NCBI GenBank assembly: GCA_965216655.1
Contig: CBDCGP010000056.1
Span: 68,782-132,781, forward strand
Direction: 5' to 3'
DNA from: Acidimicrobiales bacterium
GTDB taxonomy: Bacteria; Actinomycetota; Acidimicrobiia; Acidimicrobiales; SZUA-35
Length of the DNA: 64,000 nucleotides
Of this stretch, positions 9,471 to 64,000 are shown one piece after another (the first letter of the stretch is position 1; each line of letters opens with the position of its first letter). The notes beneath the pieces were generated by a model. It ran no database searches. It was not told the DNA's origin and was given only the letters and a program-made list of their open reading frames with translations. Both the position numbers and the translations under genes were made by a program.

Positions 9471-9506
9471 CCAGATCGCAGGCACGACGAACAAAAGCTG
9501 TGAGGG

Positions 9507-10280
9507 CTAGGAGCGGCCGGCCATCCGGCGGTTGGCGATCTTCGACTTGACGTAGTCGCGGTTCATGTAGGCGATGAAGTCCTGGCTGATCTCCTTGGGG
9601 CAGGCCTCGGTGCATTCGCCGTGGTTGGTGCACGACCCGAAGAACTGCTCCATCGTCTCGACCATCGCCTCGCTCCGCCGGAACCGCTCCGCCTGACCCT
9701 GAGGCAGTGAGTTGAGGTGCCACAACTTGGCCGACGTGAACAACTGGGCCGCCGAGTTGGGGCACGCGGCCACGCAGGCACCGCACCCGATGCACGCCGC
9801 CGCGTCCATGGCCGAGTCGGCGACATCCTTGGGCACCGGAATCTCATTGGCATCGGGCGCCGAACCGGTGGGAGCGGTGATGTAGCCGCCGGCCTCGACG
9901 ATGCGGTCGAGCGGCGAGCGGTCGACCACCAGATCTCGGATCACGGGGAACGCGGCGGCCCGCCACGGCTCGATGACGATGGTGTCACCGTCGTTGAACT
10001 TGCGCATGTGGAGCTGGCAGGTGGCGGTGCCCTTCTCCTGGCCGTGGGCCCGACCGTTGATCATCACACCACACGTACCGCAGATGCCTTCCCGGCAGTC
10101 GTGGGGAAACTCGATCGGAAGCTGACCGTCTTCGATGAGGCCCTCGTTGACGATGTCGAGCATCTCGAGGAACGACGCATCGTCGGGGATGCCCTTGGCC
10201 TGGTAGGTCTCGAAGCGGCCTTTGGCCACCGGCCCGTCCTGCCGCCAGATGCTGAGGGTGAGGTTCAGTTTCTTCGACAT
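9507..10280 (-). CDS. sdhB: Succinate dehydrogenase/fumarate reductase iron-sulfur subunit
   Basis: Cys clusters [22 protein letters not shown] and [12 protein letters not shown]. Abuts sdhA, whose stop is adjacent to the sdhB start at 10280/10281. Confidence 0.95.
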
Positions 10281-12197: not shown

Positions 12198-12216
12198 GTG
12201 TCGTCTCCTCTCGGAC

Positions 12217-13035
12217 CTATCCCGCGCTCACGAGGCTTGGGTCGTAGTCGATGATTCCGGTGAGAACCGCAATCGGGAAGCTGACGTTGCCGACCAGGAT
12301 GATGACGGCCAGTGCGGTGGCCAGACCCCGGCGGACGCTGTTGTAGTTCGGGTTGTTGATGCCCAGGCTCTGGAACATCGAGTACACCCCGTGATAGATG
12401 TGCACCGCCAGCATGACGTTGGCCACGATGTAGATGATCGCCACCACCGGATTCGACAGCGAGTTCACGACATTGGCCTGCACCTCGCCCCGCTCCCAGT
12501 CGGTGTGGGGGAGCCAGCCCCAGGTCAGGTCGGCCAGGTGGAAGATGATGTAGGCCAGCACGATCACGCCGGTGTAGCGCATCGAGCGGGAGGCGAAATT
12601 GGCGGCGAGCCAATCACGCTTCGACTGGTAGGCCACGTTGGCCTCCGCGTTCATCCTGGTGAGGCTGTAGGCGGAGTGGATGTGCAGGACGAAGGCGGCG
12701 ATCAGGCCGCCGCGCAGCGCCCACAGGAGCCAGGTGCGGGGGAAGATCGGGGTGAACAGCTCCCGGAGTCCCTCGGCGTAGATATCGATGTCGTAGAGCA
12801 TCTCGCCGTCGTGCTCGATCACGCCGAGGTACAGCTTGATGTTGCCGAACATGTGGAACAACACGAAGCCGAGGAGAGCGATGCCGGTTGCGGCCATCAC
12901 CCACTTCTTACCGACCGCCGTCTGGTAGAGGCTGAGCGGGAAGGGGGCCTGACGGCGAGGGGACCGGATCGGGCGATCCGCGCTCCGTGCCGGTTGCGAT
13001 GGTTGGGAATCTCTGGCAGCAGCTGGCGCAGCCAT
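12217..13035 (-). CDS. sdhC: Succinate dehydrogenase cytochrome b (b558-type, five TM helices)
   Basis: Multi-TM protein with conserved His residues ([31 protein letters not shown]) directly upstream of sdhA. Start trimmed to ATG 13035; the 13197 start adds a non-membrane Pro/Ser-rich extension. Confidence 0.85.
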
Positions 13036-13284
13036 GTCGGGGCGACCTCCGCGAGACGTTGATGGCAGCGAGCGAGTCGAACCCGCTGGAACCGAAGCCC
13101 CCGGCTCGGTCGTTGTCGGAGGCAGCTCAGTGGAGTCGCATCCGATCGGCAGACCGGGGGAACGCCACTGAATCGCTGCGGCTGCGGCCGCGACCAATCG
13201 CGGGTTGCAATCAGTACAGCGGCAACGATAGCGGGCGCTGATCGTCGTGGGCCATCCGCGCCGGGTTTTCGGCCGGAGTCGGGG

Positions 13285-24085: not shown

Positions 24086-26113
24086 ATGGTTGGCCAGCGA
24101 TTCCGCTACTCCCGATGGGACGGCAGTCAGAGCGGCTTCGACTTCGACGCGCTCGACGTGCTGGCCGAGCTGTCCGATGACCTGATGTACCACGGGGATC
24201 CGTCGTCGGCTCTGCGGCGCCTCATGCATGACGGCTTCTCCGACCGTGACGGCCGTGAGATCGAGGGTCTGCGGGAGATCCTGCGCAAGCTCCGTGAGGA
24301 GCGCCAGGAGCGGCTGGAGAACTATGACCTCGGCGGCGTCTACGACGAGATCAACGAGGAGCTGAACGATCTCGTTGCCTCGGAACGGCAGTCACTCGAC
24401 GATCGCTCGGCCCTGGCCGACATCGAGCTGGCCGACCCCGAGCTGGGCGACGACGGCCGCCGAGCCGCGGAGAACGCCAAGGCCGCGACCGCCCAGAAGC
24501 ACATGCAGCTCGACATGTTGCCCCACGATCTGGCGGGGAAGGTCCGGGGTCTGCAGAACTACGAGTTCGAATCCCAGCAGGCCCAGCAGCGGTTCGAAGA
24601 ACTGCTCGATCGGTTGCGTCAGGAACTGGTCAACCAGCAGTTCGGGCAGATGGCCGACGCCATGTCCAACATGAGCCCGGAAGACATGGCTCGGATGAAG
24701 GACCTGATGGCCGAGCTCAACCGGATGCTGGAGCAGCGGGCCAACGGAACCGAGCCCGACTTCGACGCCTTCATGGACGAATACGGCGATTTCTTCCCCA
24801 ACAACCCGCAGACCCTCGACGAGCTGTTGGAGGACATGGCTCGACAGATGGCGGCCATGCAGGCCCTGCTGAACTCGATGACCCCGGAGCAGCGGCAGCA
24901 GCTGATGGAACTGTCGAATCAGCTCATGGAGGACATGGACCTCAACTTCGAGGTCTCGAGGCTGGGGCAGAATCTCCAGCAGATGTTCCCCGACGCCGGC
25001 TGGCAGCAGGGCTACGACTTCTCCGGATTCGACCCGCTCGGGCTGGCCGACGCATCGTCGATGATGCGGGACCTGAGTGATCTCGATCAGCTGGAGCAGT
25101 TCCTGCGCCAGATCACGAGCCCGCAGGCGCTGGCCGAAGCCGACATGGACCAGGTCAGGCGCCTACTGGGTGACAGCTCGGCCGCCAGCCTGGAGCGGAT
25201 CGCCGAGCTCACCCGGATGTTGGAGGAACAGGGCCTGATCCACAACAAGGAGGGCCGCCTCGAGCTCACCCCCCGAGGCCTGCGGAGGCTCGGTCAGCAG
25301 GCGCTGGGCGAGTTGTTCAAACGGCTGTCGGCCGACAAGCTCGGTCAGCACAACATCGACGTGACCGGGATCGGCCACGAACGTAACTATTCGACCAAGC
25401 CCTACGAGTTCGGGGACCCGTTCAACCTCAACATCGAGCGCACGGTCGGCAACGCCATCCGGCGTTCCGGCGGTGGCACACCGGTTCGCCTCACCCCGGA
25501 CGATTTCGAGATCGAGCGCACCGAACGTCAGGTCCGGTCGAGCACGGTGTTGATGCTGGACCTGTCACTGTCGATGCCGATGCGCGACAACTTCCTGCCG
25601 GCCAAGAAGGTGGCCATGGCGTTGCACGCATTGATCACGAGCCAGTATCCCCGGGACTATCTGGGCCTTGTGACCTTCGCTGCTCTGGCCCGAAAGCTGA
25701 AGGCGTCCGATCTGCCCGAGGTGTCGTGGGACTACGACTACGGAACCAACATGGCGCACGGCTTCATGCTGGCCCGTCAGATGCTGTCGCAACAGAGCGG
25801 TACGAAGCAGATCATCATGATCACCGACGGTGAGCCGACGGCCCATCTGCTACCGGACGGAAGTCCCTACTTCAGCTATCCGCCCACCATGGAGACGATC
25901 AACCACACGATGGCCGAGGTCCTGCGGTGCACGAAGGCCGACATCACGATCAACACGTTCATGCTCGATCCCGACTCGGGCCTTCGGGGATTCGTGGAAC
26001 GGCTCACGGAGTTGAACAAGGGTCGGGCGTTCTACACGAATCCGGAGACGCTCGGTGACTACGTGCTCGTCGATTTCATCGAACACAAGCGTTCGATCGT
26101 GCGGGGCCGCTGA
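24086..26113 (+). CDS. von Willebrand factor A (vWA) domain protein, partner type of the ChlI/MoxR ATPase
   Basis: 675 aa with a long helical, acidic N-terminal part. C-terminal vWA domain with MIDAS LMLDLSLSM and IIMITDGEPTA. Confidence 0.85.
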   Translation: MVGQRFRYSRWDGSQSGFDFDALDVLAELSDDLMYHGDPSSALRRLMHDGFSDRDGREIEGLREILRKLREERQERLENYDLGGVYDEINEELNDLVASERQSLDDRSALADIELADPELGDDGRRAAENAKAATAQKHMQLDMLPHDLAGKVRGLQNYEFESQQAQQRFEELLDRLRQELVNQQFGQMADAMSNMSPEDMARMKDLMAELNRMLEQRANGTEPDFDAFMDEYGDFFPNNPQTLDELLEDMARQMAAMQALLNSMTPEQRQQLMELSNQLMEDMDLNFEVSRLGQNLQQMFPDAGWQQGYDFSGFDPLGLADASSMMRDLSDLDQLEQFLRQITSPQALAEADMDQVRRLLGDSSAASLERIAELTRMLEEQGLIHNKEGRLELTPRGLRRLGQQALGELFKRLSADKLGQHNIDVTGIGHERNYSTKPYEFGDPFNLNIERTVGNAIRRSGGGTPVRLTPDDFEIERTERQVRSSTVLMLDLSLSMPMRDNFLPAKKVAMALHALITSQYPRDYLGLVTFAALARKLKASDLPEVSWDYDYGTNMAHGFMLARQMLSQQSGTKQIIMITDGEPTAHLLPDGSPYFSYPPTMETINHTMAEVLRCTKADITINTFMLDPDSGLRGFVERLTELNKGRAFYTNPETLGDYVLVDFIEHKRSIVRGR

Positions 26114-26145
26114 AACAACTTCACGGGCGTTGATGGCCAGAAACA

Positions 26146-26161
26146 TGTGACGGCGGTCACG
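26146..26161. promoter_or_regulatory. CRP/FNR-type palindrome TGTGA-N6-TCACG
   Basis: catGTGAcggcggTCACgat matches the TGTGA-N6-TCACA consensus at 9 of 10 positions. It lies at the start of the ~620-nt non-coding gap upstream of the WhiB gene. Confidence 0.3.
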
Positions 26162-26733
26162 ATTTCGCGCAAAAATGTGCGCCTCGGGGAAAATTGCCCG
26201 ACAGGACCGCATCGGCCGGAATCGGTCATGAATCTACACCGCGCGGTCGGCCGGGTGGGGGATGGTCGTGCTTCGGTTCGGGTTGTACCAATGCTGGCGG
26301 GCGATCCGTCGTCACTCTCACTCAGCGTGGTCGTCCCGGTGGTTGATGGCACCAAACTTCCGCCTGACCAGGGACTTTCGGTTTACTTGTCGGTCAACTC
26401 TCGGCCACTCCGGGTGGTCGGCCCGTGTGGTCGCCAACGGTGTACCGTGCACCGATGTCGGCCTCCCCGATACCTCCCCCGACGCTCCAGCCGCATCGAT
26501 GATCAACGAGAAACCCGCTTGAACAGCGGCCGTTTCGGGATATTTACTTGGGTTTCGGGGTTGCCAGGAGCGAGATCACAGTGTTGTAATTACAGCGGCA
26601 GAAGTTTCACGGGCTGTCTTTGGTGGATGAATTCTCAACAAAGTCGGGAGCCACAGTGAACACACAAGTCGTACCCACGATGATCGAAGAACCAGATTCA
26701 CGCCCTCCGCTAGGCGAGGCGCGAGGAGGAACC

Positions 26734-27027
26734 ATGCGCATAGGTCGCAAGCACCTCATGCTCGATACCAGCTGGCAAGAATACGCAAACTGTCTTGGTG
26801 TCGACCCGGACCTCTTCTTCCCCGAGCGTGGCGCGTCCACGAAGGAGGCGAAGGAAGTGTGCCGGGGCTGCGTCGTCCGTGAGGACTGCCTCGAATTCGC
26901 GCTCGCCAACGGCGAGAAGTTCGGGATCTGGGGCGGGATGAGCGAACGGGAGCGTCGCCGCATCCGCCGTCAACGGGCCCTGGAACGCCAGGCGGCCGCC
27001 GCGGCATACGCGGGGGAGAGTGCCTGA
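26734..27027 (+). CDS. WhiB-family transcription factor (WhiB/WhiB2-like by motif recall)
   Basis: WQEYANCLGVDPDLFFPERGASTKEAKEVCRGCVVREDCLEFALANGEKFGIWGGMSERERRRI carries four Cys and the GIWGG turn. ATG 26734 follows GAGGAGGA (26723-26730). GTG 26656 is an alternative start. Confidence 0.85.
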   Translation: MRIGRKHLMLDTSWQEYANCLGVDPDLFFPERGASTKEAKEVCRGCVVREDCLEFALANGEKFGIWGGMSERERRRIRRQRALERQAAAAAYAGESA

Positions 27028-27112
27028 ACGGCGGTTCCAGCACCTTCGACCGGCCACGGCCGACAAAATCGAGTGCATGGCACTGACGGTTCGATGCCGG
27101 TAGCATTACGTC

Positions 27113-27289
27113 ATGCTCGCAATTCTTCAGCCCAATGAGATGATCATGATCGTGGTGGTCGTGCTCGTCCTCTTCGGCGGATCGCAGATCCCCAAGCTGG
27201 CTCGCAGCCTTGGGCAGGCCCAGAAGGAGTTCAAAGAGGGTCTGCAGGAAGGCGCTGAGGCCGAGGACGACGTGGAGGAGAAGGCCTAG
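27113..27289 (+). CDS. tatA: Twin-arginine translocase subunit TatA/E (58 aa; absent from the ORF track)
   Basis: Hand translation gives MLAILQPNEMIMIVVVVLVLFGGSQIPKLARSLGQAQKEFKEGLQEGAEAEDDVEEKA. TM helix, then FGG hinge, then amphipathic helix with KEFK. TAG at 27287-27289. Confidence 0.85.
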   Translation: MLAILQPNEMIMIVVVVLVLFGGSQIPKLARSLGQAQKEFKEGLQEGAEAEDDVEEKA

Positions 27290-27327
27290 GGGCCTTTCGC
27301 CGAACCGCCCACATCAACAGATGAATA

Positions 27328-27368
27328 CGAAGACTCGGCTCACGACGTGGGCCGAGTCGTCTTGTTTC
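27328..27368. terminator. Probable bidirectional terminator between tatA and the convergent WhiB gene
   Basis: GACTCGGC (27332-27339) pairs with GCCGAGTC (27351-27358). The 3' flank is GTCTTGTTTCGG, and the opposite strand also has a T-rich flank. Confidence 0.45.
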
Positions 27369-27416
27369 GGAACCCAGCTGTGCGAACCAGCTGTGTCGGG
27401 ATCAGCTTCGGCGAAA

Positions 27417-27683
27417 CTACCGGGGGACCGATTCGTGGACCCGGGCCTCGGCGAGGCGGGCTTCCTTGCGAGCCTTCAGGATGCGCCGGCGCTGCCGTTC
27501 CGAGGTGCCGCCCCAGACCCCGTGGTCGATGCGGTGGGCGAGCGCGTATTCGAGGCACGGCTCCTTTGAAGGGCACTCGGCGCAGACCTTCTTCGCCACT
27601 TCGACGCCAACGCCATCGCTGGGAAAGAACAGCTCTGGTGGTTTGTCGCTGCAGTTGCCGATCGCCATCCAATTGCTCTCCAT
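27417..27683 (-). CDS. WhiB-family transcription factor (second paralogue)
   Basis: MESNWMAIGNCSDKPPELFFPSDGVGVEVAKKVCAECPSKEPCLEYALAHRIDHGVWGGTSERQRRRI. Start at ATG 27683; alternatives at 27710 and 27668. Confidence 0.85.
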   Translation of the reverse strand: MESNWMAIGNCSDKPPELFFPSDGVGVEVAKKVCAECPSKEPCLEYALAHRIDHGVWGGTSERQRRRILKARKEARLAEARVHESVPR

Positions 27684-27865
27684 GGAAATAGAGACGCACC
27701 AGTAGGCCATTTGGTTCCCTTTGGGCCGAAAAACCTGGGAAATTTTACTTTTTGTTCGGAGTCGAGTGCCGTCAACCGGCTTTTCGTCCGCCCGGACGCC
27801 GCCTTTCGGCGCCTCGATCGATTCCTGAACATGATTCCCATCAAGCGAAACTAGGATGAACAGCC

Positions 27866-28372
27866 ATGACCGATGTCGAACTGCAAGAGGATCTCCCACC
27901 CGTCGCCCACGTGACGATCGTCTACACCGGCCCGATCGCCCCTCACTGGGAGTTGCGGGTTCGGTACGGCGACCAGAAGATGCTCGACGACTTCTGGGCC
28001 CGGGTGAACGCCCGCCTCCTGCTGTTGCCGAAGCACGATCCGCAGTTCCGCCGCAACAAGGAGCGGGTCAACCGCGACGCCGAGCGGGAGCGCATCACCT
28101 GCGACTGGGACCTCGGTGAGGATGACGCCGACACGTCGATCACCCCCGTGGCCGAGACCGCACCGGCCGAGGCCCAACCGGTGGTCGACGAGGCACCGGC
28201 GGCCACCGACGCCGAGCCGGCACCGGACCCGGCGCCTACCGCCGACCCCGAGCCGGAGCCTGAAACGACGGAGGCCACCGCCGCATCGGAAGGGGAAGAC
28301 GCCGGCGAGACGGCGGTGGAACCGGAGGCGGAGCCTGAGCCGGAGAGCGTCGAGCAGCCGGCAGAGCTCTAG
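27866..28372 (+). CDS. Hypothetical protein with an acidic Pro/Ala/Glu-rich tail
   Basis: 168 aa. The ordered N-terminal ~85 aa (VTIVYTGPIAPHWELRVRYGDQKMLDDFWARV) is followed by the low-complexity stretch PAEAQPVVDEAPAATDAEPAPDPAPTADPEPEPE. Divergent from the WhiB gene. Confidence 0.55.
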   Translation: MTDVELQEDLPPVAHVTIVYTGPIAPHWELRVRYGDQKMLDDFWARVNARLLLLPKHDPQFRRNKERVNRDAERERITCDWDLGEDDADTSITPVAETAPAEAQPVVDEAPAATDAEPAPDPAPTADPEPEPETTEATAASEGEDAGETAVEPEAEPEPESVEQPAEL

Positions 28373-51092: not shown

Positions 51093-53999
51093 ATGCGCAC
51101 TATTCGCGACCGTCGTGGGTCGTCCCGCCTCCGTCTCGGCATCGCCGTCATCGCCGGAACCGCGTTCGCCCTCTTCCTGTCGGCCAACGGGATCGCCAGC
51201 CTGTACACCGATTGGCTGTGGTTCGATCAGTTGGGCGTCGGCTCGGTGTGGACCACCCATCTCGGCACCCAGATCGTCATGGCGGTCATGTTCGGGCTGC
51301 TGTTCTTCGCGATCTTCTGGGGCAACCTCACCCTTGCCGACCGGATCAAGCCGGCGGTGCGTCCCAGTTCAGCCGAGGAGGAGCTCGTCGAGCGTTATCA
51401 CGAGATGGTCGGCGCCCAGGCCGGCCGGGTTCGCCTGGGGCTGGCGGCCCTGTTCGCCCTGATCTTCGGGGCCAACACGTCGGCTCAGTGGCAGACATGG
51501 CTGCTGTACCGAAACTCCCAGGACTTCGGGCAGACCGACCGGTTGTTCAACCAGGATGCCGGCTTCTACGTGTTCGAGCTGCCGCTCTACACCTTCCTGA
51601 TCGACTGGTTCTTCGCCGCCCTCGTTCTGACCCTGATCGTCGTGCTGATCGCCCACTACCTCAACGGCGGAATCCGGGCCTCGGTGCTCGATCAGCGGGT
51701 CAGCACCCCGGTCAAGCTCCACGTCTCGGTGATCATGGCCCTGCTGGCGATTCTGCGGGCCGTCGACTACTGGCTCGATCGCTACCACCTGGTCACGTCG
51801 AATCGTGGTGCGTTCGATGGAGCGCTCGCCACCGACGTGCTGATTCAGGAGCCCGCCTTCAAGCTGTTGGCCTTGATCTCGTTGTTCTGCGCCGCGCTGA
51901 TCCTCTACAACATCCGGCGTCCCGGTTGGGGCCTGCCGATGGTGGCCGTCGGCATCTGGCTCGTCTCGCATTTCGTGATCGGCAACGCCTTCCCGCTCGC
52001 CTATCAGCGGCTGCGGGTTGCGCCCGTGCAGTCCACGAGGGAAGCCGAATTCGTCGAGCGCAACATCGAGGCCACCCGGTTCGCCTACGGCCTCGACGGT
52101 GATCGGGTCACCCGGGTCAGCCTCCCGTACCAGGTCGGCCTGACCGACGAGGATGTCAGCGCCAACCAGGATGTCCTCGACAACGTGCCGGTCGTCGACC
52201 CCGTGCTCGCCGTCGACGAGGTCGTCCGCTCCGAAGCCGACCGCCGCCTGTTCAGCTTTACGTCGCCGCTCGACGTCGACCGCTACCTGATCGACGGCGA
52301 GCTCCGCCCGGTGGTGCTGTCGGCCCGTGGCCTCAACATCAACGAGGTGGGCAGCGGCTGGGAGCAACAGCACGTGATCTTCACGCACGGGTACGGCCTG
52401 GCCATGGCCGCCGCGTACGACGACGGAATCTCCCTCGGCCCAACCGACACCCGCGCCCTCGACTTCCTGATCCGTGGCCTGGCCAACATCGAGGTCGACG
52501 AGGACCTCGGTACCGACCTCGACCAGCCCCGCATCTACTACGGCGACGACTTCGGCGGCTACGCCATCGTCGGCAACGAGCGCGAGGAGGTCGACTACCC
52601 GACCGACAGCGGATCGCAGTTCTTCCGCTACGACGGCACCGGCGGCGTGGCCATCGACTCCTTCCTCCGCCGGTTTGCGTTCTCGCTACGATTCCGGCAG
52701 CTCGACCCCCTGATCTCCAATACGATCACCGATCAGTCCAAGGTGATCTACAACCGGGACGTCGTTGATCGAGTACGGGAGATGGCGCCGTTCCTCAGGT
52801 TCGACAGCGACCCGTATCCGGTTGTCGCCGATGGCCACGTCTTCTGGATTCTCAACGGGTACACCACCACCTCCGACTACCCGTACTCGCAGTCGGTTTC
52901 GACGGAGCTGATCGGCGCCGACCTGTCGCGGGGTTACAACTACGTGCGCAACTCCGTCAAGGTCGTGGTCGACGCCTACGACGGCGACGTCGACATGTAC
53001 GTGACCGACGAGACCGATCCGGTCATCCGGGCATGGCGGGGAGCGTTCCCCGATCTGTTCACCGACGAAGCCGAGGTGCCCGACGAGATCCGGAGACACT
53101 TCCGCTATCCGAGCGATTTGTTCACGGTCCAGACCGACATGTGGTCCGACTACGTCGTCGACGATCCGGTCGACTTCATTCAGGGCAACCTGGCCTGGTC
53201 CGTGGCCGCACAGCCGGCCATCGAGGCCGAGACAGAGGAGAGCGACACCGTCGCCGCCCCACCGATGGCGCCTCAGTACCTCATGGCCCGACCGCCGGGC
53301 GCGGAAAGCGCCGAGTTCGTGCTCCAACGGGCCTTCGTGCCGCAGTCCGGAGTCGACTCCAACACCACCCGCCCGGAGTTGACCGGCCTCATGATGGCCC
53401 GCTCCGACCCCGAGAACTACGGGGAACTCATCCTGGTGACGCTTCCGCCGGGCCAGATCGACGCGCCCGACCTCGTCCACGCCCAGATCCGGCAGAGCCC
53501 TGTCATGACCGCATTCGTGCTCGAGAAGCGGGGAGCGAAGGTCGAATTCGGCGAGATGAGCATTGTGCTCGTCGACGACACCATCGTGTACATCCGACCG
53601 GTCTATGTCGAGTCGAACAGCCAGACCGCCATTCCCGAGCTCCAACGCATCGTGGCGGTCAACGGTGATCGGATCTTCATGGATTCCACGATCGGTGGCG
53701 CGATTCAGGGAGTGGTGAGTGGTCAGGCGGTACCGGTGGAGGCCGGTCCGGAGCCGCCCGACAGCGACGACGACACCGAGAACCCGTCGGTCGACGGCGA
53801 TTTCGATCCGTCAGTGTTGTCCGTTGTGGAACTCGTGGCCTTGGCCGACGCTTGGTTGGTGCAGGCCGACGGCCTCGAAGACACCGCTCCGGATGAGGCT
53901 GATGCGCTCCGGGAGCAGGCTCGGATGGCTCTCAGCGAGGTGCAGAGAAAACTCGGTGGCGTCGCTCCGACGGCCTCTGTCGAGACCTCAGGCACCTGA
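51093..53999 (+). CDS. UPF0182-family large membrane protein (Rv3193c-like)
   Basis: 968 aa. N-terminal polytopic region starts LYTDWLWFDQLGVGSVWTT, followed by a large extracytoplasmic domain; size and start match UPF0182. Confidence 0.85.
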   Translation: MRTIRDRRGSSRLRLGIAVIAGTAFALFLSANGIASLYTDWLWFDQLGVGSVWTTHLGTQIVMAVMFGLLFFAIFWGNLTLADRIKPAVRPSSAEEELVERYHEMVGAQAGRVRLGLAALFALIFGANTSAQWQTWLLYRNSQDFGQTDRLFNQDAGFYVFELPLYTFLIDWFFAALVLTLIVVLIAHYLNGGIRASVLDQRVSTPVKLHVSVIMALLAILRAVDYWLDRYHLVTSNRGAFDGALATDVLIQEPAFKLLALISLFCAALILYNIRRPGWGLPMVAVGIWLVSHFVIGNAFPLAYQRLRVAPVQSTREAEFVERNIEATRFAYGLDGDRVTRVSLPYQVGLTDEDVSANQDVLDNVPVVDPVLAVDEVVRSEADRRLFSFTSPLDVDRYLIDGELRPVVLSARGLNINEVGSGWEQQHVIFTHGYGLAMAAAYDDGISLGPTDTRALDFLIRGLANIEVDEDLGTDLDQPRIYYGDDFGGYAIVGNEREEVDYPTDSGSQFFRYDGTGGVAIDSFLRRFAFSLRFRQLDPLISNTITDQSKVIYNRDVVDRVREMAPFLRFDSDPYPVVADGHVFWILNGYTTTSDYPYSQSVSTELIGADLSRGYNYVRNSVKVVVDAYDGDVDMYVTDETDPVIRAWRGAFPDLFTDEAEVPDEIRRHFRYPSDLFTVQTDMWSDYVVDDPVDFIQGNLAWSVAAQPAIEAETEESDTVAAPPMAPQYLMARPPGAESAEFVLQRAFVPQSGVDSNTTRPELTGLMMARSDPENYGELILVTLPPGQIDAPDLVHAQIRQSPVMTAFVLEKRGAKVEFGEMSIVLVDDTIVYIRPVYVESNSQTAIPELQRIVAVNGDRIFMDSTIGGAIQGVVSGQAVPVEAGPEPPDSDDDTENPSVDGDFDPSVLSVVELVALADAWLVQADGLEDTAPDEADALREQARMALSEVQRKLGGVAPTASVETSGT

Positions 54000-54311: not shown

Positions 54312-54966
54312 ATGTTCCGCCGAGTAGACCCCTCGACCCTCACGGTCCCGGCTCCCGAAGACACCCTTCCGGGCCGTCTCGAAGCGATGCCCGTTCCGGA
54401 CGCCCACTACGTCAACGGCAATCCCCTGATCGGGCCGTTCCCCGAGGGTACCGACACCCTGATCGTCGGCATGGGCTGCTTCTGGGGAGCGGAACGCTTC
54501 TACTGGCAGCAGCCGGGCGTGTTCACGACCGCCGTCGGTTACAGCGGAGGCACCACTCCCAACCCCCACCTATCAGGAGACGTGCACGGGCATGACCGGT
54601 CACACCGAGGCCGTGCTCATCGTGTTCTTCCCGGAGCAGGTCAGCATCGAGACGTTGTTCAAGATCTTCTGGGAGAATCACGACCCGACCCAGCACATGG
54701 GTCAGGGCAACGACATCGGCACGCAGTACCGGTCGGCGATCTACGCCAACTCACCACAACAACTCGAGGCGGCACTCAAGAGCCGTGACGTCTATCAGCG
54801 GCAGCTGACCGAAGCCGGATACGGCGACATCACCACCGAGATCGCCACGGCCGGTCCGTTCTACTACGCCGAGGAGTACCACCAGCAGTACCTGGCCAAG
54901 AATCCCGGCGGGTACTGCAACCACGGCTTTTGTCAGATCGGCTACACACCGGAACCGGCCGGGTGA
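54312..54966 (+). pseudogene. msrA: Peptide methionine sulfoxide reductase A, interrupted by a +1 frameshift (or a sequence error)
   Basis: Frame 1 reads ...[33 protein letters not shown] and then nonsense. Frame 2 resumes ...[16 protein letters not shown]...FWENHDPTQ...GTQYRSAIY...[14 protein letters not shown]. The sequence has AACCCCCACC (54561-54570) where an intact frame needs AACCCCACC. Confidence 0.85.
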
Positions 54967-55796
54967 CGACAGCGAGCGGGCGCACGTTCCGGCAGCTCCA
55001 CGAACCGGGTAATCCGTTCGTGTTGCCAACGCGTGGGACGTCGGTTCGGCGAAGGTTCTGGAAGCGCTGGGCGCCGAGGCGATCGGAACATCGTCGGCGG
55101 CCCATGCGTTCACGCTCGGACTGCCGGACATGGGCCATGTGAGCCGTGACGAGGCCCTGGCTCACGCGGCGTCGGTCGCCGACGCCGTATCAGTGCCGAT
55201 CTCCGGTGACCTCGAGAACGGCTACGGGCACCGTGGGTCCGACGTGGCCGAAACCATCACACGGGCGGCCGCGGCGGGCCTCGCCGGCTGCTCGATCGAA
55301 GACACCGCTCTGCCCGACAGCGCTCCGTATGCCCGTGCCGAGGCCGTCGCCCGGATCGAGGCGGCCGTGAGTGCCACTCGAGCACTTTCCGACGATTTCG
55401 TGCTCGTCGCCCGAGCCGACGGTGTCATGAACGGTCAGTACGACGTCGCCGAGGCCATCGCCCGGATCCAGGCGTTTGAAAGCGGTGGGAGCCGATTGTG
55501 TCTATGTGCCGATGCCCCCATCGTTCGACGACCTGGCTCGAATCTGCGAATCGGTCGATGTGCCCGTCAACGCCTTGGTCGCGGGGCCGTTCACCCGATA
55601 CAGCCGTGCCGACTTCGCCGGCATCGGTGTGGCTCGCCTGTCGCTCGGATCGGCGCTGGCCCGGGCCACCCACCGCACCTTGATCGAGGTGGCGCGTGAC
55701 GTGCTGGGAGCCGACGCAGACTTCGAAGGACTCGGTCGTGGTGTTCCGGGTGCCGAGGTCGATGACCTGCTCGGTGCCGGACCTCCCGACGACTGA
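54963..55796 (+). pseudogene. Isocitrate lyase/PEP mutase-family protein, broken by two frameshifts
   Basis: Three pieces in frames 0, 2 and 0. Piece 1: [21 protein letters not shown]. Piece 2: [29 protein letters not shown]...SGDLENGYG...IEDT...LVARADG...RIQAFE. Piece 3: AVGADCVYVPMPPS...NALV. Breaks at ~55025 (one G missing) and ~55480 (extra A). GTG overlaps the msrA stop. Confidence 0.75.
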
Positions 55797-55879
55797 CCAT
55801 CGTGCTGCTGCCATGGCTTCCCCCACGTCGGGTGCGTGGCGGTAGGGCGACGGCGTGAGTTTTTTACTACGGTGGAACC

Positions 55880-58800
55880 GTGGACCGGGAGCTGATCTCC
55901 GTGCAGTTGCTCGGTGGTTTCACCATTCGCTGTGAAGCGGGAACCATCGATTCTCTGCCGCGCCGGTCGGCCTCCCTACTGGCGTATTTGGTCATGAACC
56001 GGCACCGACCCCAAACCCGGGACCTTCTCGCCGGTCGCTTCTGGTCGGATCTGCCCGAGGACAAGGCCCGAAAAAGGCTGAGCAACACCCTGTGGCAGAT
56101 CCGTAGCGCGCTCAGCGAGATCGGTCTCGACGACCTGATCGTTTCCACCAGTACAACCATCCAGCTCGCACCGGGATGGCCCCTCGAGATAGACGTCGAG
56201 GAGTTCGAGCGTCGATTCGACGACATCGATCGGGAATGGGCCCAGCATGCGGCCCGCGCCCCTCTCGCCGACAAACTCCACCGCACTGATCGACGAGTAT
56301 CCGGGCGATCTGCTGGCCGGCCATTACGACGACTGGATCGAGGCCGAGCGGGCGGCGGTCAAGGACCGCTACACGAACGCAATCTGGCAGGCCATCCGGC
56401 TGTTCAAGGGGCGTTCCGACTACGTCACCGCGCTCCGGTACGCCCGCCAGCTCGTCGGTTACGATCCGCTGGCCGAGGAGAACCACCGGGAGGTCATGCG
56501 GCTGTGCGCGTTGCTGGGCCAGCCCGCAGCAGCCGAGCGCCAGTATCGGAGCTGCTCGGAGGTCCTGGCCGAGGAACTGGGAGTCGAACCGTCCTGGGAG
56601 ACAGCGGAGCTCCACGACCGGATCCAGAGCGAGGCCTCGAACGCCGCTGCTCCGATGGTCGCCCTCGGCGAACTGGACACGCCGATCATCGGTCGCTCGA
56701 GAGAACGTGCGGTGCTCCTGGGCCGCATCGACGAGCTGCTCAATGGACAGGGCGGCCTGATACTGATCGAAGGCGATCCGGGGATCGGCAAGTCCCGGCT
56801 GGTGGAGGATCTGGCCGACGCCGCTGACTGGCGGGGTGTTCGGCTCCTGTCGACCGCCAACACCGAGGTCAGCCGGATGCGGCCGTACCACGCGATCCAA
56901 TCCGTGTTGTCGCCGGCAGTCACCGGGCTCCGGGGCGAGCACCTGGCCGAGGTCACCGATCAGATCTGGCTTCAGCACGCTGCAGAGGTGCTGCCCGACT
57001 TGCGCCAGTACGTCACGGTGCCGACCGCCCGATCCTTGCTCCCGGAAGAGGAGGCGACTCGGATGACGGAGGCGCTGGCCCGGGTGCTGTTGGCCCAAGG
57101 CGGGCTCGGGCCAACCCTCGTTGTGTTGGAGGACGTGCATTGGTGCGACGACGACTCGATGCGGGTCTTCACCAATCTCGGCAAACGGCTGAGCCGAAGC
57201 GGAGTTCTCGTCTGCCTCACCTACCGCCGATTCGAGGCCGAACAGAACGAGGGCATCTGGTCGGTCATCTCCCGTCTCGAAGGAATGGCTTCGTCGACCA
57301 GGGTCGTACTCGCCGCGTTGAACCGCTCCGAGATCCGTGAACTGGTGTCGGCCGAGCTCGGGCCTGGCGCATTGCCGGCCAGCGTGCAGGAGAGGCTGGT
57401 CGATGAGTCCGGCGGCAATCCGCTGTTCGTCCTCGAAGCCCTACAAGATCCTGAGGCTCTGCTGTCGAGCGACACCGAGGCACGTGATCCCCACGAACAC
57501 CCCGACCGTTTCCCGGCCACGGTTGCCCGGGCCCTGCAACATCGCTTGGACTCAATGCCGGCCGATGTGCGAACGGTGCTACGGGGCATGGCCGTCCTTG
57601 CCGAACCGTGCTCATCGCAACTGGTGTCGAACATCACCGGCCTCGAGCGGCGGCGGACGCTCGGTGGCTTGAACGAGGCCGTCAACCGAGGGTTCCTGGT
57701 CGAGATCGGGGCCGGCATCTGTCGGTTCTGCCACGATCAGACGCGACGCGCCGTCTATCACGCGATGCCCGACGAGGAGATCCTCGGCTGGCACCGACAG
57801 ATCTATCAGGCGCTGATCGCCGAGGAACGCCCCCAGCCGGAGCAGGTTGCCTACCACTGCCGATCTTGCCGAGATGTGGTCCGAATCGGTCCACTGGCAC
57901 ACGGTCGCCGCCCGATCCGCGGAGGCGGTCGACGCACTTGGCGTCGCCGCCGAACACTACAACGAGGCGGACAAGGCAGCGCAGCTTGCCGGGATCGGCG
58001 AGATCGACAGGTTCGGTGATCTCCTGAGTCACGAGCGGGCACTCGACATCCTCGGTCGGCGCGATGAGCAGGAGTTGCTGCTGAAGCGTCTACTCAACCT
58101 CGACCTTGGTCTCGAGGAACGGGTCGACCTCGCCGAGCGGCAGGCCTGGCTCATGGGTCATACCGATCGCCACGACGAGGCGGCTCATCTTGCGTCCGAG
58201 TGGGCCCAACGAGCATTGGAGGCCGGCCTTCCGAACATACCGTCTCCTGACTGTGCTCGGTGTCGTTCGCTATTGGAATGGCAGCTTGTTCGAGGCGATC
58301 GAGGCACTGCGGTTGGCCTTGAAGGCGGCGCCTGACGACCAGGCCGACGTCACCATCAAGAACCACCTGGGTCGCGCCCTTATCGACGTCTCGGAATTCG
58401 ATGAGGGTGACGACCTGGTCGCGCAGGCGCTGGCAACCGCTGAGAATCTCGGTGACGTTCGAGGTCAGGTGGAGGCGATTATTCATCAGGCGATCTCCGC
58501 GCTGCGCCGAGGGCACAACGACGAGGCAATGACCCGGGCCGAGGCATCGCTGCCTCTGAGTAGGTCGATCGGTTATCGGTACGGCGAAGGCGTGTCACTC
58601 ATTGAACCTGGCCACTCTGCGGGCAATCCGAGGCCAGGCTGGGGTTGCATTGGAGCTGTTCGACGAAGCGGCCGAGATGTTCGACGTGCTCGGGATCACC
58701 CGGACCAAGGCGATCGTTCGAACCAATCTGGCGGAGATCTACCGCCGGCTTTCTCGGCGAGTATCATGAGGCTTGCCAAGCTCTACAGCCATGCGGCGGC

Positions 58801-59132
58801 CAGCTTTCGAAGCCTCGGCGATGAGCGACGTGAACCTTCGCTGCATGAGCCGGCTCTCCGGAATCGACTGGGAGAGCGGGGCGCCGCCGACTGGCCCGCC
58901 GCCGGCTGCAACGCACCTCATCGAGCGGGCGGGGCAACTCTCCGATCCTCTCGTTGAACTGGAGGCGCGCCGGGTGGTTGCCGCTTGCCTGAGCCAGAAC
59001 GGTGACTACGCCGACGCAATCCCTCGACCGGCACGTCGAACGCTCACTCGACGCGTTGCACCCTACCATCGAGGAAAACTCGTTGGCACTACGCCATACC
59101 CGAGTCTGTTGGCCACGCTACCGATTGTCTGA
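55880..59132 (+). pseudogene. AfsR-like regulator (SARP wHTH + BTAD + P-loop NTPase + TPR), readable only through about seven +1 frameshifts
   Basis: wHTH ISVQLLGGFTIR...LLAYLVMNRHRPQTRDLLAGRFW. BTAD YPGDLLAGHYDDWIEAER...VMRLCALLGQPAAAERQY. P-loop LIEGDPGIGKSRL, Walker B LVVLEDVHWCDD. TPR-like repeats continue in successive frames. Breaks near 56281, 57858, 58237, 58604, 58749, 58774 and 58843. Confidence 0.75.
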
Positions 59133-59510
59133 TCGGTGCCGAGCCTGCGACGCTAATCCGGCGAACTTGACCTGACCGCTTGGGCGCAGTACTCAGCAAT
59201 CGGGCCGTAAACTTCCGCGCATATACCGGAATCCGCGACCTTGGTTTCCTGCCCGCTTGGCGTGCAGGCTGCATCTATCGATCCGCGGGTCGTGACGAGG
59301 ATGCAGCCGACCAGTGCGCCCTGGCCGTTCAATCTGCTCAATTCGAATCTCGATCGGTGTCGAGAGCTGAACGGGCTGCCGCTCGCGTCGGTTGCCGGCC
59401 GCAGTTCGCCGTCGATAGCCGAGGAATATGAGCGGTATCACCCTCGCGTGGTTGAGGCCAGACTCACCGTCGAATCGGCTCTTACTGGTCGTACCACTCA
59501 GATCGGATGA

Positions 59511-59867
59511 GTACACGAGGTCGTCGCCTGGACGGCGTCCGATCCGGACGACTGGAGGGTTGAAGACGCGGCGGAAAGGCGTCAGCGACGTGTGCTGAGG
59601 CTCTGCGAGAGGGCTCAGGAGCAGGGCGCATTGGCCTGAGTTCACGATCTGTCCGAAGTGCTCGGGGTCAGCGAACGGACGGTAAAGCGGGATTTGGCCG
59701 AGCTCAGACTCGACGGAGGAGAAGCCGACAACCCGACGATCAGTGTGACAGGTAGATCGATCTCGAAGTTTCTTGCGGCACGAACCGGCTACAAATCCCC
59801 AGGTCAGAGGCTATTCGGGCGCGTTGTCCCCATAGTTTGGCCTCAAACTTTCACCAAGACTGGATAG
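59511..59867 (+). pseudogene. Small HTH regulator relic with an in-frame TGA
   Basis: ...ERRQRRVLRLCERAQEQGALA-TGA(59637-59639)-VHDLSEVLGVSERTVKRDLAEL. The stop falls just upstream of a helix-turn-helix motif (HDLSEVLGVSERTVKRDL). Confidence 0.5.
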
Positions 59868-59957
59868 GACAGGACAGAGACGGCGGGGACACACTTGGGA
59901 CATCAGCTTGATCAACAAGCTACCTCAGTCGTCGTCAAGCGTGTTGGAGTTATTGTA

Positions 59958-60053
59958 ATGTCTCGTCGCCTGTTTGTCCTCCTGTCGCCAGTCGTCTTTG
60001 CTGCCGCCACCGCTCTTCCTGTCGTGAGCGCCGTGGCCTGGGAGTTCGGCTGA
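59958..60053 (+). CDS. 31-codon signal-peptide-like ORF (absent from the ORF track)
   Basis: GGAG (59946-59949) lies 8 nt before the ATG. Hand translation gives MSRRLFVLLSPVVFAAATALPVVSAVAWEFG. A hairpin follows 15 nt downstream. Confidence 0.3.
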   Translation: MSRRLFVLLSPVVFAAATALPVVSAVAWEFG

Positions 60054-60067
60054 TCCCCGTTCGAGGT

Positions 60068-60101
60068 CCTTCTCAGTCCTCTTCCGCCGTGGCTGAGAAG
60101 G
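60068..60101 (+). terminator. Hairpin downstream of the 31-codon ORF
   Basis: CCTTCTCAG (60068-60076) pairs with CTGAGAAGG (60093-60101): a perfect 9-bp stem with a 16-nt loop. Confidence 0.4.
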
Positions 60102-60130
60102 ATCTTCCTGCTGACATGGTTAGCAGGGCA

Positions 60131-60181
60131 CCAGGGTGTGACCGTCGCAGAATCCTAGCGCTGCGACGGTTACACCCTTGG
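60131..60181. repeat. About 20-bp imperfect inverted repeat (long hairpin)
   Basis: CCAGGGTGTGACCGTCGCAG (60131-60150), 10-nt loop, CTGCGACGGTTACACCCTTGG (60161-60181). The core 13-bp stem has one mismatch. Confidence 0.6.
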
Positions 60182-60402
60182 TTTCACATAGAAACTCACC
60201 GCTCATCCCTCCATTCTCCTGAGAGTGCGTGAGATCCGAGGCTTCCTCAGACCCACGGTCTTTACCCCACCGCCTTTTGATCGGGGCGATGCCACCGGGG
60301 GATGGGGAAGTACTCGGTTTTGGCCGCCGTTGATGTGGACAGGTGATTCGGCCGGATTCAGCGTGGCGACCGAGTGGCGACGCGCTAGGATGAAGATCCC
60401 AA

Positions 60403-60476
<74 letters not shown>

Positions 60477-60492
60477 CTAGAGCTTTTCGGAA

Positions 60493-60515
60493 GATCCCGC
60501 TCTCAGAGCGGGATC
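60493..60515 (+). terminator. Hairpin immediately downstream of the tRNA
   Basis: GATCCCGCTC-tca-GAGCGGGATC: perfect 10-bp inverted repeat, extendable with one mismatch to 60489-60519. Confidence 0.5.
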
Positions 60516-61216
60516 CTCCGCGCCTCGTCGGCTCTGCCGACTCATGACACGTCGGGCGACGCCGTTGGTTGTCTGCGGGCGGAGTGTCCTTCCAGGAATC
60601 TCGAGTCAGCCGTCCGGCTCAACGTCACGCTTTGTTGCTGGAGTACGCCCGAAGTCAGTCAGTGACATCGACTCACGTTCGCTCCGTTCGCGATAGCTCC
60701 CTACATCCTCGATCATGCTGCCGCCCCTTCGGCTGCCTCTCGGTCGGCCGGCTGTGGTCAGGGTCAACAGAAGCATGATCTCGAGAGGGAGTGCCTCCCG
60801 AGGGGTGTTATGTCATGTGAGAAACCATGAAACTCCACCTCGGGAGGTCCTCCTCGTGGACGCCGCCCCGGCGATACGATCTAGATTGACGATCCAAACT
60901 CCTGACGCCTGGTTGGAAGAGGTCATAGCCAGGATTCCGATAGCCCACATCGCTGCTGAGACTGTTATTCGGTAGGCCACGGAAATGCTCTCTGACACTC
61001 TGGCCATCAATCTTTGACCACGTATGTCCCAGAACTGTCCCAGTGTCGAAAACCGGGCGCTGGCCTTGAGTATCTGCAGCGGGTCAGACGATCTACAGCT
61101 CGGCAGCGGTCGGCTCTCTGGCGGCGGTGGGTGACCGATGCCACGCTATAGTGAGCCACCGGCGGCGGAGACTGGTGGTTCCAGAGTGGTGATGCGAATC
61201 GGCGGGTTCGGAGATT

Positions 61217-63416
61217 TTGGTGGCATCTGAGAGGGACATCGTCGAGATTCGTGCGTTCGGCAAGTGGCTGATCAGCGTCAATGGTGTCGAGGCTCCTTCA
61301 GTCCAATCCCGTTTTGCTCGACAGATCCTCGTCGCTCTTTCTTTGACAAGTGGATGGATCGCGCGTGAAAAGTTGATCGATGACTTGTGGTCATCGTCTT
61401 CCGATATCGGGATGTCACGACGTCGACTCTCGAAGGAATTGTCGCGCATACAGGGCTGCATTGGCATCCGGCTGTGGTCAGGAGATCGCGAGAGTGTGCG
61501 AGTTGATCCAGGTGTTCACCTTGTCAGCGACGTCAGCGTGTTGATCGACGACCTCGGCGCCGCGCCGCCATCCGCGGATCCCGTCCGCGAAGCGGCACGT
61601 CTCCAGGAGCACGTGCGAGTCGTGGAGCGCGGTATGTTGCTGCCGGGACACTTCGACCCGTGGACCTGCGATCTGCGCAGTCGAGTCGAACAGTTGGAAA
61701 TAGGAATTCGCCGATCGTTGGTCGAGCTTCTGGGGCGTTGCGGACGGCCTGACCGCGTTGAGGCACGCCCGTCGGTGGGCGGAGCTCGACTCGTTCTCGG
61801 ACGAGGCGCACGCCACCGTCATCCACCTCACACGGCTCTACGTCGGATCGGCGGCGGCCCGATCAGTACCAGGCGCAAGCAGAAGAGCTGTACCGGACGG
61901 AGTTGGAGGTCGACCCTGCGGGCCGGTTCGATGCTTCACCGACGACTGCACTGGTTGCGCTCAAAGAATGTGAGGAGCCGTTGCTTCCGGCCAAGGTGCG
62001 CCGACTCAAACAGAAGTTGGAGGGTTGCGACATGAAACCTCCAGACCGGATAGCGCTCGTACTTGAGTTGGATGACACTCTGCGATGGATTGGTCACCAC
62101 CACGAACGGGCAAAGTTTCTGTCGGTTCTCGAAGATCAAGACGTTGCTCTCGACGTCAGGGGCTGGCGTGAGGTAGAGGTGGCGACCGTTGCTGGGGAGC
62201 TGCAAAGAGCGCGTGCACTCACCGAAGAGATCCGGATGATAGAAGGGTCGACCGACCGTACTTCGGCTTCGATGCTCGATCTGATGGAAGCGCTCCGACT
62301 TCATGCGACGGGGAAAGGACAGGCGGGCGATCGAGATTTTGGAGTCCGTGGTCACGGGCCGACACGTCATTGACCGTCGAGACCGAGGCCCGGCAACTGA
62401 TGGCGTCGATCTACGATGCCTTGGGGAAAGTGGATGTTGCCCGCGAGCACGCCGTAACTGCGCTGGAAGGGGTTCTTCGGGGGGAACTACACGAATACGA
62501 GTCCAGCGCACTCGCCTCGCTTAGCTTCGCACTTGCCCGCGGTATCCATGCGGCCGAAGCGGAACTCCACGCCGAGCGTGCTCTCGAGTTGGCCAGGGAA
62601 TCAGGAAGTGATCGCGACCTCGGTGCCGTCAACCATGCGTTGGCCTACGTCCACTACATCAGTCGGCGTTTTACGACCTCGTATTCGTACGCAACGGCCG
62701 CTGCCGACATCTATCGGCGATCCGGCAATGTGCATCTGCTTGCGAGATCGGCCCACTGCGCAGGCTTGTCGGCACGGGTCTATGGGGATCTTGATGGCAT
62801 GGGGTATCACGTCGATGCGCTACGTTCCTTGGGTGAGGCATCGGCACTCCCGATCATTCAGGTTCGGACGGAGATCCTTGAGGCCTGCATCAGTTTCGGA
62901 CGACGTAGTTTTGAACAGTCGGCGATCCATCTCGAGAAGGCACTCGAACTGCTCTGCGGTACGGAGTTGGAGCTGTGGCGGATCTATACAACCTCGATGT
63001 TGATCCGTAGCAAGCTTCAGATGAATCAACAACACGAAGCGCTCCAACTGGCAGAAGCCAATGTAGTGAGAGCGCACAAAGTTGGGCTTCCTCCCCGACA
63101 GGTGGAATTGTTTGAAGGTGATCTTGGCTGCGCGCTCGTTGCCACCGGCGATGTACGCCGCGGCTTTGATGTGCTCAACGGAATACTCGGTCACGGCAAC
63201 CCAAGCCAGATTCTGTTCGCTCATCCACATGTGTTCCGATTCGAGGCAGCCCGATCCCTCGGGGATACCGAGACGGCCACCGCAACGCAGCGGACCGCTT
63301 GGCTCATGCTCGACACGCTGCGGAAAGATCTCACTCCAGGCCAATGGGATCTGGCCAGACGCAACTCGGAGTTCGTGCGACCGTTGCTGGCCATCGTGGA
63401 CGATGACCCGATGTGA
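61217..63416 (+). pseudogene. SARP-type regulator (wHTH + BTAD + TPR, no P-loop), readable only through four +1 frameshifts
   Basis: wHTH VEIRAFGKWLISVNG...ILVALSLTSGWIAREKLIDDLW. BTAD MLLPGHFDPWTCDLRSRVEQLEIGIRRSLVELLG / VADGLTALRHARRWAELDSFSDEAHATVIHL / PDQYQAQAEELYRTELEVDP. TPR continues to 63416. Breaks near 61736, 61857, 62326 and 62370. Confidence 0.7.
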
Positions 63417-63515
63417 CACAGAGTAGGCGCAGCGATCCGAGGTTGCTCAAGGTCGACTGCCAGTCGTGCCGATAGGCCTCTTGAACCCGAGGGTCGATTG
63501 TCGGCGAGGTCTTTC

Positions 63516-64000
63516 ATGAAATCCATTCGTAGTATCGCCATCGCGCTGCTTCTCGTTCTGGTTGCCGGGGCATGTCAGTCATCGGGCGGCGATGCCGCCG
63601 TCATTGCTTCGAGTGGCGATGTTGATGTTGACGGCACGTCGGCGGTGGAATCACCCGCCGACGCTTCAGCGGACGCAGCGCTCGACGACGATGAAGAGCC
63701 CCAAAACGACACAGAAGCCGACGAGGACAGTGAGACCGAGGACGATGATGCGCCGCCGGCCGATGAATCGGAGTCGAATGACGTCGACACGGCAGGATCG
63801 GCCCTGCTGGCGCGGGTTTCCGACGCCACCATGGACGCTTCAACGGCACGATTCGAGGCCCGATTGTCGGTCGCTGGCGGCCCCGGGTCGGACGCCACCG
63901 ACTTCGAGCTGACGATGTCCGGGGCCTACGACCTCGACCTCGGGGCGTCCGACATCGTCGTCGACCTGTCCGGGATCGTCCCGCTCATCGCCGCCGAGGC
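63516..64000 (+). CDS. Lipoprotein with an acidic low-complexity tether; 3' end outside the window (absent from the ORF track)
   Basis: GAGG lies 6 nt upstream of ATG 63516. MKSIRSIAIALLLVLVAGAC (lipobox LVAGAC), then DDDEEPQNDTEADEDSETEDDDAPPADESESND. The frame stays open to base 64000. Confidence 0.7.
   Translation, partial: MKSIRSIAIALLLVLVAGACQSSGGDAAVIASSGDVDVDGTSAVESPADASADAALDDDEEPQNDTEADEDSETEDDDAPPADESESNDVDTAGSALLARVSDATMDASTARFEARLSVAGGPGSDATDFELTMSGAYDLDLGASDIVVDLSGIVPLIAAE

Follow-up and report, generated by a model that had tools for sequence, protein, structure and literature searches.

Results

Genes and features of the locus

The 64,000-nucleotide (nt) stretch of DNA analyzed here (the window) comes from an Acidimicrobiales bacterium and corresponds to positions 68,782 to 132,781 of the forward strand of contig CBDCGP010000056.1 (GenBank assembly GCA_965216655.1). 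Beyond the gene for a UPF0182 protein (51093 to 53999), the window becomes a patchwork of short open reading frames (ORFs). Four genes can be read through this patchwork, all on the + strand: msrA (54312 to 54966), a gene of the phosphoenolpyruvate (PEP) mutase/isocitrate lyase superfamily (54963 to 55796), a large SARP-type regulator (regulator 1; 55880 to 59748), and a second regulator (regulator 2; 61217 to 63416). A hairpin-rich non-coding element and an initiator-type tRNA-Met gene lie between the two regulators. The reading frame of each of the four genes is broken at least once, and all four become full-length once the extra bases are removed.

With a custom protein-to-DNA dynamic-programming aligner that permits +1, +2, -1, and -2 frame changes, we compared the window with the intact orthologues of related genomes (loci L001 and L003 to L008) and with protein P0002. 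This frameshift-aware alignment yielded about 27 frame events across 54,563 to 62,361, and 26 of the 27 are extra bases in the window, a bias toward insertion (26 insertions versus 1 deletion) with a binomial p of 4e-7. One event falls in msrA, two in the PEP-mutase-like gene, about 20 in regulator 1, and four in regulator 2. A sequence-only reading of the same DNA had listed about 14 breaks, nearly all in the +1 direction. All of the breaks it listed were reproduced to within a few bases, and the one-directional pattern persisted, with no balanced mix of insertions and deletions in the new alignment. The count, however, was too low, as regulator 1 holds about 20 events and not 7; the earlier reading of this gene ended at 58843, before its densest part, and the gene runs on to 59748.

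The close relatives of the UPF0182 protein, in a scan of one genome per species, are found solely in Acidimicrobiales/Acidimicrobiia metagenome-assembled genomes, the best of which (L001 to L005 and L013) share 85 to 89% amino acid identity with it. Synteny with these relatives is kept from 41 kb to 60,477, with blastn matches ending at 60477 to 60479. Proteins identical to two ORFs of the window (P0001 and P0003) are recorded in NCBI/ENA on one contig only, of 197,097 nt. After UPF0182, the relatives carry msrA (~217 amino acids [aa]), the PEP-mutase-family gene (~277 aa), and the regulator (1264 to 1295 aa) as single intact ORFs. The breaks are thus private to the window's assembly, the genes being intact in L001 and L003 to L008.

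In msrA, which encodes a peptide methionine sulfoxide reductase of 217 aa after correction, a run of five C residues stands at 54563 to 54567 where four are expected. The aligner places the +1 event at 54565, and a private 1-nt insertion at 54563 is also present in a nucleotide alignment. With this single correction, the protein is 88% identical to its L001 and L005 orthologues and matches PF01625 over positions 2 to 153 of 153 with 200.7 bits, while the uncorrected fragments score 43.7 and 128.4 bits. It has a full-length PMSR domain and carries the active-site motif GCFWG (as GMGCFWGAE). The next gene (277 aa corrected) has two breaks, with one base missing at 55025 (-1) and an extra A at about 55479 to 55485 (+1), and the L003, L004, L006, and L008 orthologues all agree on them. 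Its corrected product matches PF13714 from 1 to 240 of 240 (231.5 bits; largest fragment, 100.3 bits), and the predicted protein is assigned at the family level to the PEP mutase/isocitrate lyase superfamily. The identities first proposed for both genes are borne out by these full-length matches. The second gene is variably present in the group: relative L001 is without it and has msrA followed directly by the regulator (L001:13857-14063 versus 54963 to 55796 in the window).

Regulator 1, of ~1281 aa after correction, carries most of the breaks. Seven orthologues, all intact, agree on about 20 events (17 +1 and 3 +2) and align over its full length, with identities of up to 84%, only when its frame is corrected. 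The +1 sites lie at 56280, 57859, 58238, 58604, 58744, 58775, and 58836 in the first part of the gene and at 58879, 59030, 59090, ~59100 to 59160, 59328, 59356, 59369, 59412, 59494, and 59719 further on; the +2 sites lie at 58916, 59236, and 59519, the last of which can alternatively be read as -1. The stop codon is at 59746 to 59748. Within the gene, a linker at 59020 to 59240 is poorly conserved and is lengthened in the window by about 50 bases, through private insertions of 7, 12, 12, 6, 8, and 4 nt; several stops occur there in the best-fit frame, and both the count of events in this linker and their type are uncertain.

Correction yields a complete BTAD domain (residues 104 to 249), an AAA_16 ATPase domain (269 to 444), TPR_12 repeats (~905 to 975), and a C-terminal helix-turn-helix (HTH) region (DUF1670/HTH_DeoR, residues 1196 to 1272), as judged by Pfam, and the last of these is encoded within the densest error zone. 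The original identification of regulator 1 by its BTAD, ATPase, and TPR domains therefore stands. Corrected regulator 1 has no Trans_reg_C match at E <= 0.001; residues 1 to 103 precede BTAD, the usual place of that domain. The C-terminal module (59400 to 59745, with DUF1670, HTH_DeoR, and HTH_11 matches) resembles a second DNA-binding module, which is not usually part of the BTAD-ATPase-TPR architecture. Distances among the relatives also shift abruptly within this gene, between 58000 and 59000, where the window-L004 distance falls from 0.22 to 0.15 and that of L005 rises to 0.29 versus both, which suggests past recombination among these lineages.

Regulator 2, of ~731 aa after correction, was aligned to P0002 (598 aa), its only useful homologue, which is 47% identical in a database search and 46% identical in the alignment. 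Four +1 events are located at 61740, 61861, 62324, and 62361, with none from 62361 to 63413, and the N terminus at 61238 to 61732 is continuous against locus L079. This gene had been described as a SARP-TPR regulator. P0002 carries TPR_MalT, and the body of the protein is TPR_MalT-like. Even when corrected, the 731-aa protein matches no Pfam family at E <= 0.001, BTAD/SARP included, and its N terminus is only weakly SARP-like; the similarity that tblastn detects to the BTAD region in the regulator 1 orthologues is weak. The next gene (63483 to 63998) aligns in one frame.

Frame changes are also present in two other public metagenome contigs that carry homologues. A regulator 1 orthologue on L080 (ENA contig_57351, 9369 to 13046) shows four or five +1 events, in short runs. 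Locus L079 (ctg276790_3x_l, labelled 3x coverage) has a frame change at 2944 to 3440, just upstream of P0002.

Distribution of the frame breaks

Counted per 500 bases from 54.0 to 60.0 kb, the events number 0, 1, 2, 0, 1, 0, 0, 1, 1, 6, 9, and 2, followed by 2 and 2 at 61.5 to 62.5 kb and zero after 62.4 kb. The profile is bell-shaped, with about one event per kb at its margins and a maximum of 15 per kb at 58.5 to 59.5 kb. Six events fall in the bin 58500 to 58999 and nine in 59000 to 59499, with 0 to 2 in all remaining bins, and the core of the island (58600 to 59720, unstranded) contains about 17 of the 27 events at densities of up to nine per 500 bases. A Viterbi coding model likewise loses the coding signal from 58545 onward. 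The profile spans four genes and one non-coding element and ignores gene boundaries. An error ramp toward the end of the window was considered and rejected, since no breaks occur in regulator 2 from 62361 to 63413 and the gene after it is in a single frame; the profile is a peak near 59 kb.

The GC content of the window is 0.64 to 0.71 over most of its span and 0.60 to 0.62 from 58 kb on. A link between the breaks and lower GC had been proposed. It is weak, as the 3' half of regulator 1 is just 2 to 3 points below its orthologues in GC.

Outside the island, the same aligner, run with four different relatives, found no real break in 41.4 to 54.0 kb; the few calls made there correspond to over-extended N termini of the query ORFs. 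Segmentation of 1 to 54 kb by a codon-position Viterbi model placed frame changes only at gene boundaries. Together these two results uphold the earlier statement that no breaks occur before 54 kb. No breaks were seen when one relative's regulator was aligned to the DNA of six other relatives in an orthologue-versus-orthologue control. An independent nucleotide alignment of 54.3 to 60.5 kb contains 17 window-private 1-nt insertions, versus one or two in each of four relatives.

Other gaps in the ORF map of 1 to 54 kb were considered as broken genes and rejected as gene-boundary effects. An ORF-poor patch at 26.1 to 27.4 kb consists of short genes and not of broken ones: two WhiB-like genes placed divergently (26620 to 27027 on the + strand and 27417 to 27899 on the - strand) and a tatA-like gene at 27113 to 27289. 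GC content is lower across 26100 to 27900 (0.61 to 0.62), and the roughly 500 bases at 26114 to 26620 contain no convincing ORF.

Nature of the inserted bases and selection on the corrected genes

At the codon level, each event appears as one extra base within an otherwise conserved codon context. This view does not fit a consensus that kept both alleles of a single-nucleotide polymorphism, and merging of strain alleles was rejected on that ground. For the 17 insertions located by the nucleotide alignment, the run that contains the inserted base is one base long in eight cases, two in five, and three to five in four, a spread near the background distribution; eight of the 17 inserted bases differ from both neighbors. 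About half thus lie outside any homopolymer, a pattern that slippage-type frameshift mutation or a phase-variable tract would not give. By base, the insertions comprise 7 C, 4 G, 3 A, and 3 T, approximately the genomic composition.

If the genes were decaying, relaxed selection or an excess of substitutions would be expected in them, and neither was seen in the broken genes. Window-private substitutions in regulator 1 number 54, 26, and 73 at codon positions 1, 2, and 3. Private codon changes, counted where four other sequences agree, are 36 synonymous to 17 non-synonymous in the window, compared with 24:14 for the functional L005 orthologue and 45:11 for the window's intact UPF0182 control. 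By this comparison, the underlying genes are still under purifying selection. Divergence from L004 per 500 bases is no greater than that among the relatives, with the exception of the 59.0- to 59.5-kb bin over the variable linker. The corrected genes had been described as free of nonsense codons, and this is nearly so: the 1281 codons of regulator 1 contain one clear in-frame stop (59637, TGA versus CGG in the orthologues), with one to three further, uncertain stops in the poorly alignable part of the linker at 59130 to 59210.

Non-coding element, tRNA gene, and variable segment

The hairpin-rich non-coding element (60050 to 60345, + strand, ~270 to 300 nt) lies between regulator 1 and the tRNA gene. 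It is also found in L004 (12735 to 13000), L003, L005, L006, and L080, and partly in L007, L008, L012, and L026. No other part of the 54- to 60.5-kb block is as well conserved: the distance to L004 is 0.109 here versus 0.14 to 0.31 in the gene bins. Changes private to the window's copy include the loss of 1 nt at ~60118, the gain of a T at ~60225, and an insertion of 26 nt at 60326, and the error island therefore extends into non-coding DNA. The element contains the motif GAUCGGGGCGAUGCC and an 18-bp hairpin at 60133 to 60178 that is maintained by compensatory changes in more distant relatives. The L004 copy folds at -131 kcal/mol (z-score, -8.1). The element matches no Rfam family and may represent a structured RNA not yet described or the leader of the tRNA. 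A conserved 31-codon ORF (MSRRLFVLLSPVVFAAATALPVVSAVAWEFG) with a GGAG ribosome-binding site lies directly upstream of it at 59958 to 60053 (+), and the start region of this ORF is invariant across seven sequences.

The tRNA gene (60403 to 60477, + strand, anticodon CAT) was identified by Infernal/Rfam with 63 bits and by ARAGORN. In the Infernal alignment it has the initiator features of GGG/CCC flanking the anticodon loop and a C1/C72 mismatch, and its sequence is identical to the L003 to L008 copies. The 3' CCA end is not encoded, and a terminator-like hairpin follows the gene at 60488 to 60520. All synteny stops just past this tRNA-fMet gene, and the roughly 3 kb that follow (to 63480, with regulator 2) have no match in the relatives' loci. 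No integrase and no att repeat was found in 60480 to 63480, where a repeat of the tRNA 3' end and other flanking repeats were looked for. An integrated element after the tRNA was considered and rejected, since flanking and tRNA-end repeats are absent around this segment.

Discussion

The frame breaks described here are very probably absent from the DNA of the organism, and we read them as residual single-base insertion errors in the consensus sequence. Several features favor an artefact: the breaks occur in this assembly alone, the genes show neither relaxed selection nor an excess of substitutions, half of the insertions lie outside homopolymers, and their density follows a bell shape that ignores gene boundaries. 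In the organism itself, all four genes are almost certainly unbroken. The sequence-only reading had left two interpretations standing, sequencing or assembly error and a mutational mechanism specific to this segment. The private breaks, unrelaxed selection, and bell-shaped profile support the first, and nothing supports the second.

The errors probably arose in a long-read or hybrid metagenome assembly in which the ~8-kb stretch from 54.5 to 62.4 kb rested on a handful of noisy single-molecule reads or had received too little polishing. This stretch spans a site that varies between strains, made up of the tRNA-fMet gene and the 3-kb segment absent from the relatives, and read depth may plausibly dip there, because a metagenome would contain fewer reads for a strain-specific configuration than for its shared surroundings. 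Consensus quality would then track depth, and the density of errors would follow it, with low depth as the presumed cause. In its profile, the island is closer to the insertion-type noise of single-molecule reads than to the homopolymer deletions typical of Nanopore assemblies, a likeness from which we name no platform with confidence.

Some points weigh against an artefact. An insertion-only profile outside homopolymers is not the textbook residue of either Nanopore or PacBio; residual errors in polished Nanopore and high-GC PacBio assemblies are mostly homopolymer deletions (PMC12007338, PMC8574707), and reports in the literature conflict on insertion versus deletion bias by platform. The 75-nt tRNA gene within the island is free of errors, an outcome expected about one-third of the time at an error rate of 1 to 2%. 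A second assembly of the same species was not found: the best match in the genome scan has 89% amino acid identity, the protein database gives the identical protein and then 89%, and JGI gives at most 53%. The artefact is inferred here and not observed in reads.

One alternative is that msrA, the PEP-mutase-like gene, and both regulators are genuine pseudogenes, inactivated in this lineage and decaying neutrally. In its favor, all four of these adjacent genes are broken, and their corrected frames contain one or two stops; at least one relative (L001) dispenses with the PEP-mutase-like gene, and the segment borders the variable region past the tRNA. We nevertheless consider decay very improbable. 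Natural bacterial indels are deletion-biased and concentrated in runs, and neutral decay mixes indel sizes and brings about ten substitutions per indel along with many nonsense codons. A gene that had drifted long enough to acquire some 20 indels would be expected to have accumulated about two hundred neutral substitutions as well as numerous stops. Here, 26 of the 27 events are insertions of 1 to 2 nt and one is a deletion, half of the insertions lie away from slippage-prone runs, and 1281 codons contain a single clear stop. There is no excess of substitutions; the fewest changes fall on codon position 2, and synonymous changes still outnumber non-synonymous ones by 36:17. Changes of the same kind also occur in the near-invariant non-coding element.

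A very recent local burst of mutation in vivo, in which about 30 untemplated single bases were added over ~8 kb, for example, by error-prone synthesis during repair of a DNA break or during integration next to tRNA-fMet, is less probable still. It would suit the uniform direction, tight clustering, and density peak of the events and their position adjoining a tRNA-linked variable segment, and the unrelaxed selection is compatible with an event too recent to have left a trace in substitutions. Against it, neither an integrase nor an att repeat flanks the 3-kb segment, and the sampled population would have to be dominated by cells that had lost msrA and two regulators. We know of no bacterial process that gives dozens of non-homopolymer +1 insertions without substitutions, and break-associated mutagenesis by Pol IV yields mainly -1 deletions in runs, together with substitutions. 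The similar +1 breaks in the unrelated metagenome contig L080 point instead to technology. Programmed recoding, by which ribosomal frameshifting or transcriptional slippage would allow the genes to be expressed despite the breaks, can be set aside as next to impossible: the corrected frames are nearly stop-free, but the sites share no slippery motif, none is conserved in the orthologues, all of which are single-frame, and 20 recoding sites in one gene are, to our knowledge, unheard of.

If the breaks are consensus errors, they have consequences for users of this annotation. The public record splits the ~1281-aa regulator into fragments such as the 590-aa P0003 and breaks up the 731-aa protein as well, with the 338-aa P0001 as one of its parts, and msrA and the PEP-mutase-family gene would be annotated as pseudogenes or fragments. 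Pseudogene counts, completeness estimates, and searches for regulators that draw on this contig would be misled. More generally, a clean long contig can conceal a short island with up to ~1.5% insertion error that is invisible to genome-wide quality statistics.

With its frames corrected, regulator 1 is like the large SARP-family regulators of Actinomycetota in having BTAD, AAA_16, and TPR_12 in the usual order, and unlike them in its added C-terminal HTH and in the lack of a Trans_reg_C domain detectable by Pfam at the threshold used here. The locus as a whole can be compared with the pseudogene clusters of bacteria undergoing reductive evolution, such as Mycobacterium leprae, which also contain adjacent frameshifted genes whose orthologues are intact elsewhere. 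True decay, however, comes with deletion bias, nonsense codons, larger deletions, and a relaxed ratio of non-synonymous to synonymous change (dN/dS), which were not seen in the window.

The nearer comparison is with the spurious frameshift pseudogenes that arise from low-coverage, long-read, and hybrid assemblies (PMC11017572; Kastor, PMC12007338; ARAMIS, PMC8574707). In those cases, as here, single-base indels fragment genes that have intact orthologues, the errors are found by comparison with relatives, and correction gives full-length proteins; the problem is reported to be worst at low coverage. The reported errors differ from ours in being genome-wide and mostly homopolymer deletions, whereas those in the window are confined to a single island of 8 kb, the rest of the 64 kb being clean, with errors that are nearly all insertions and lie outside homopolymers in about half of the cases.

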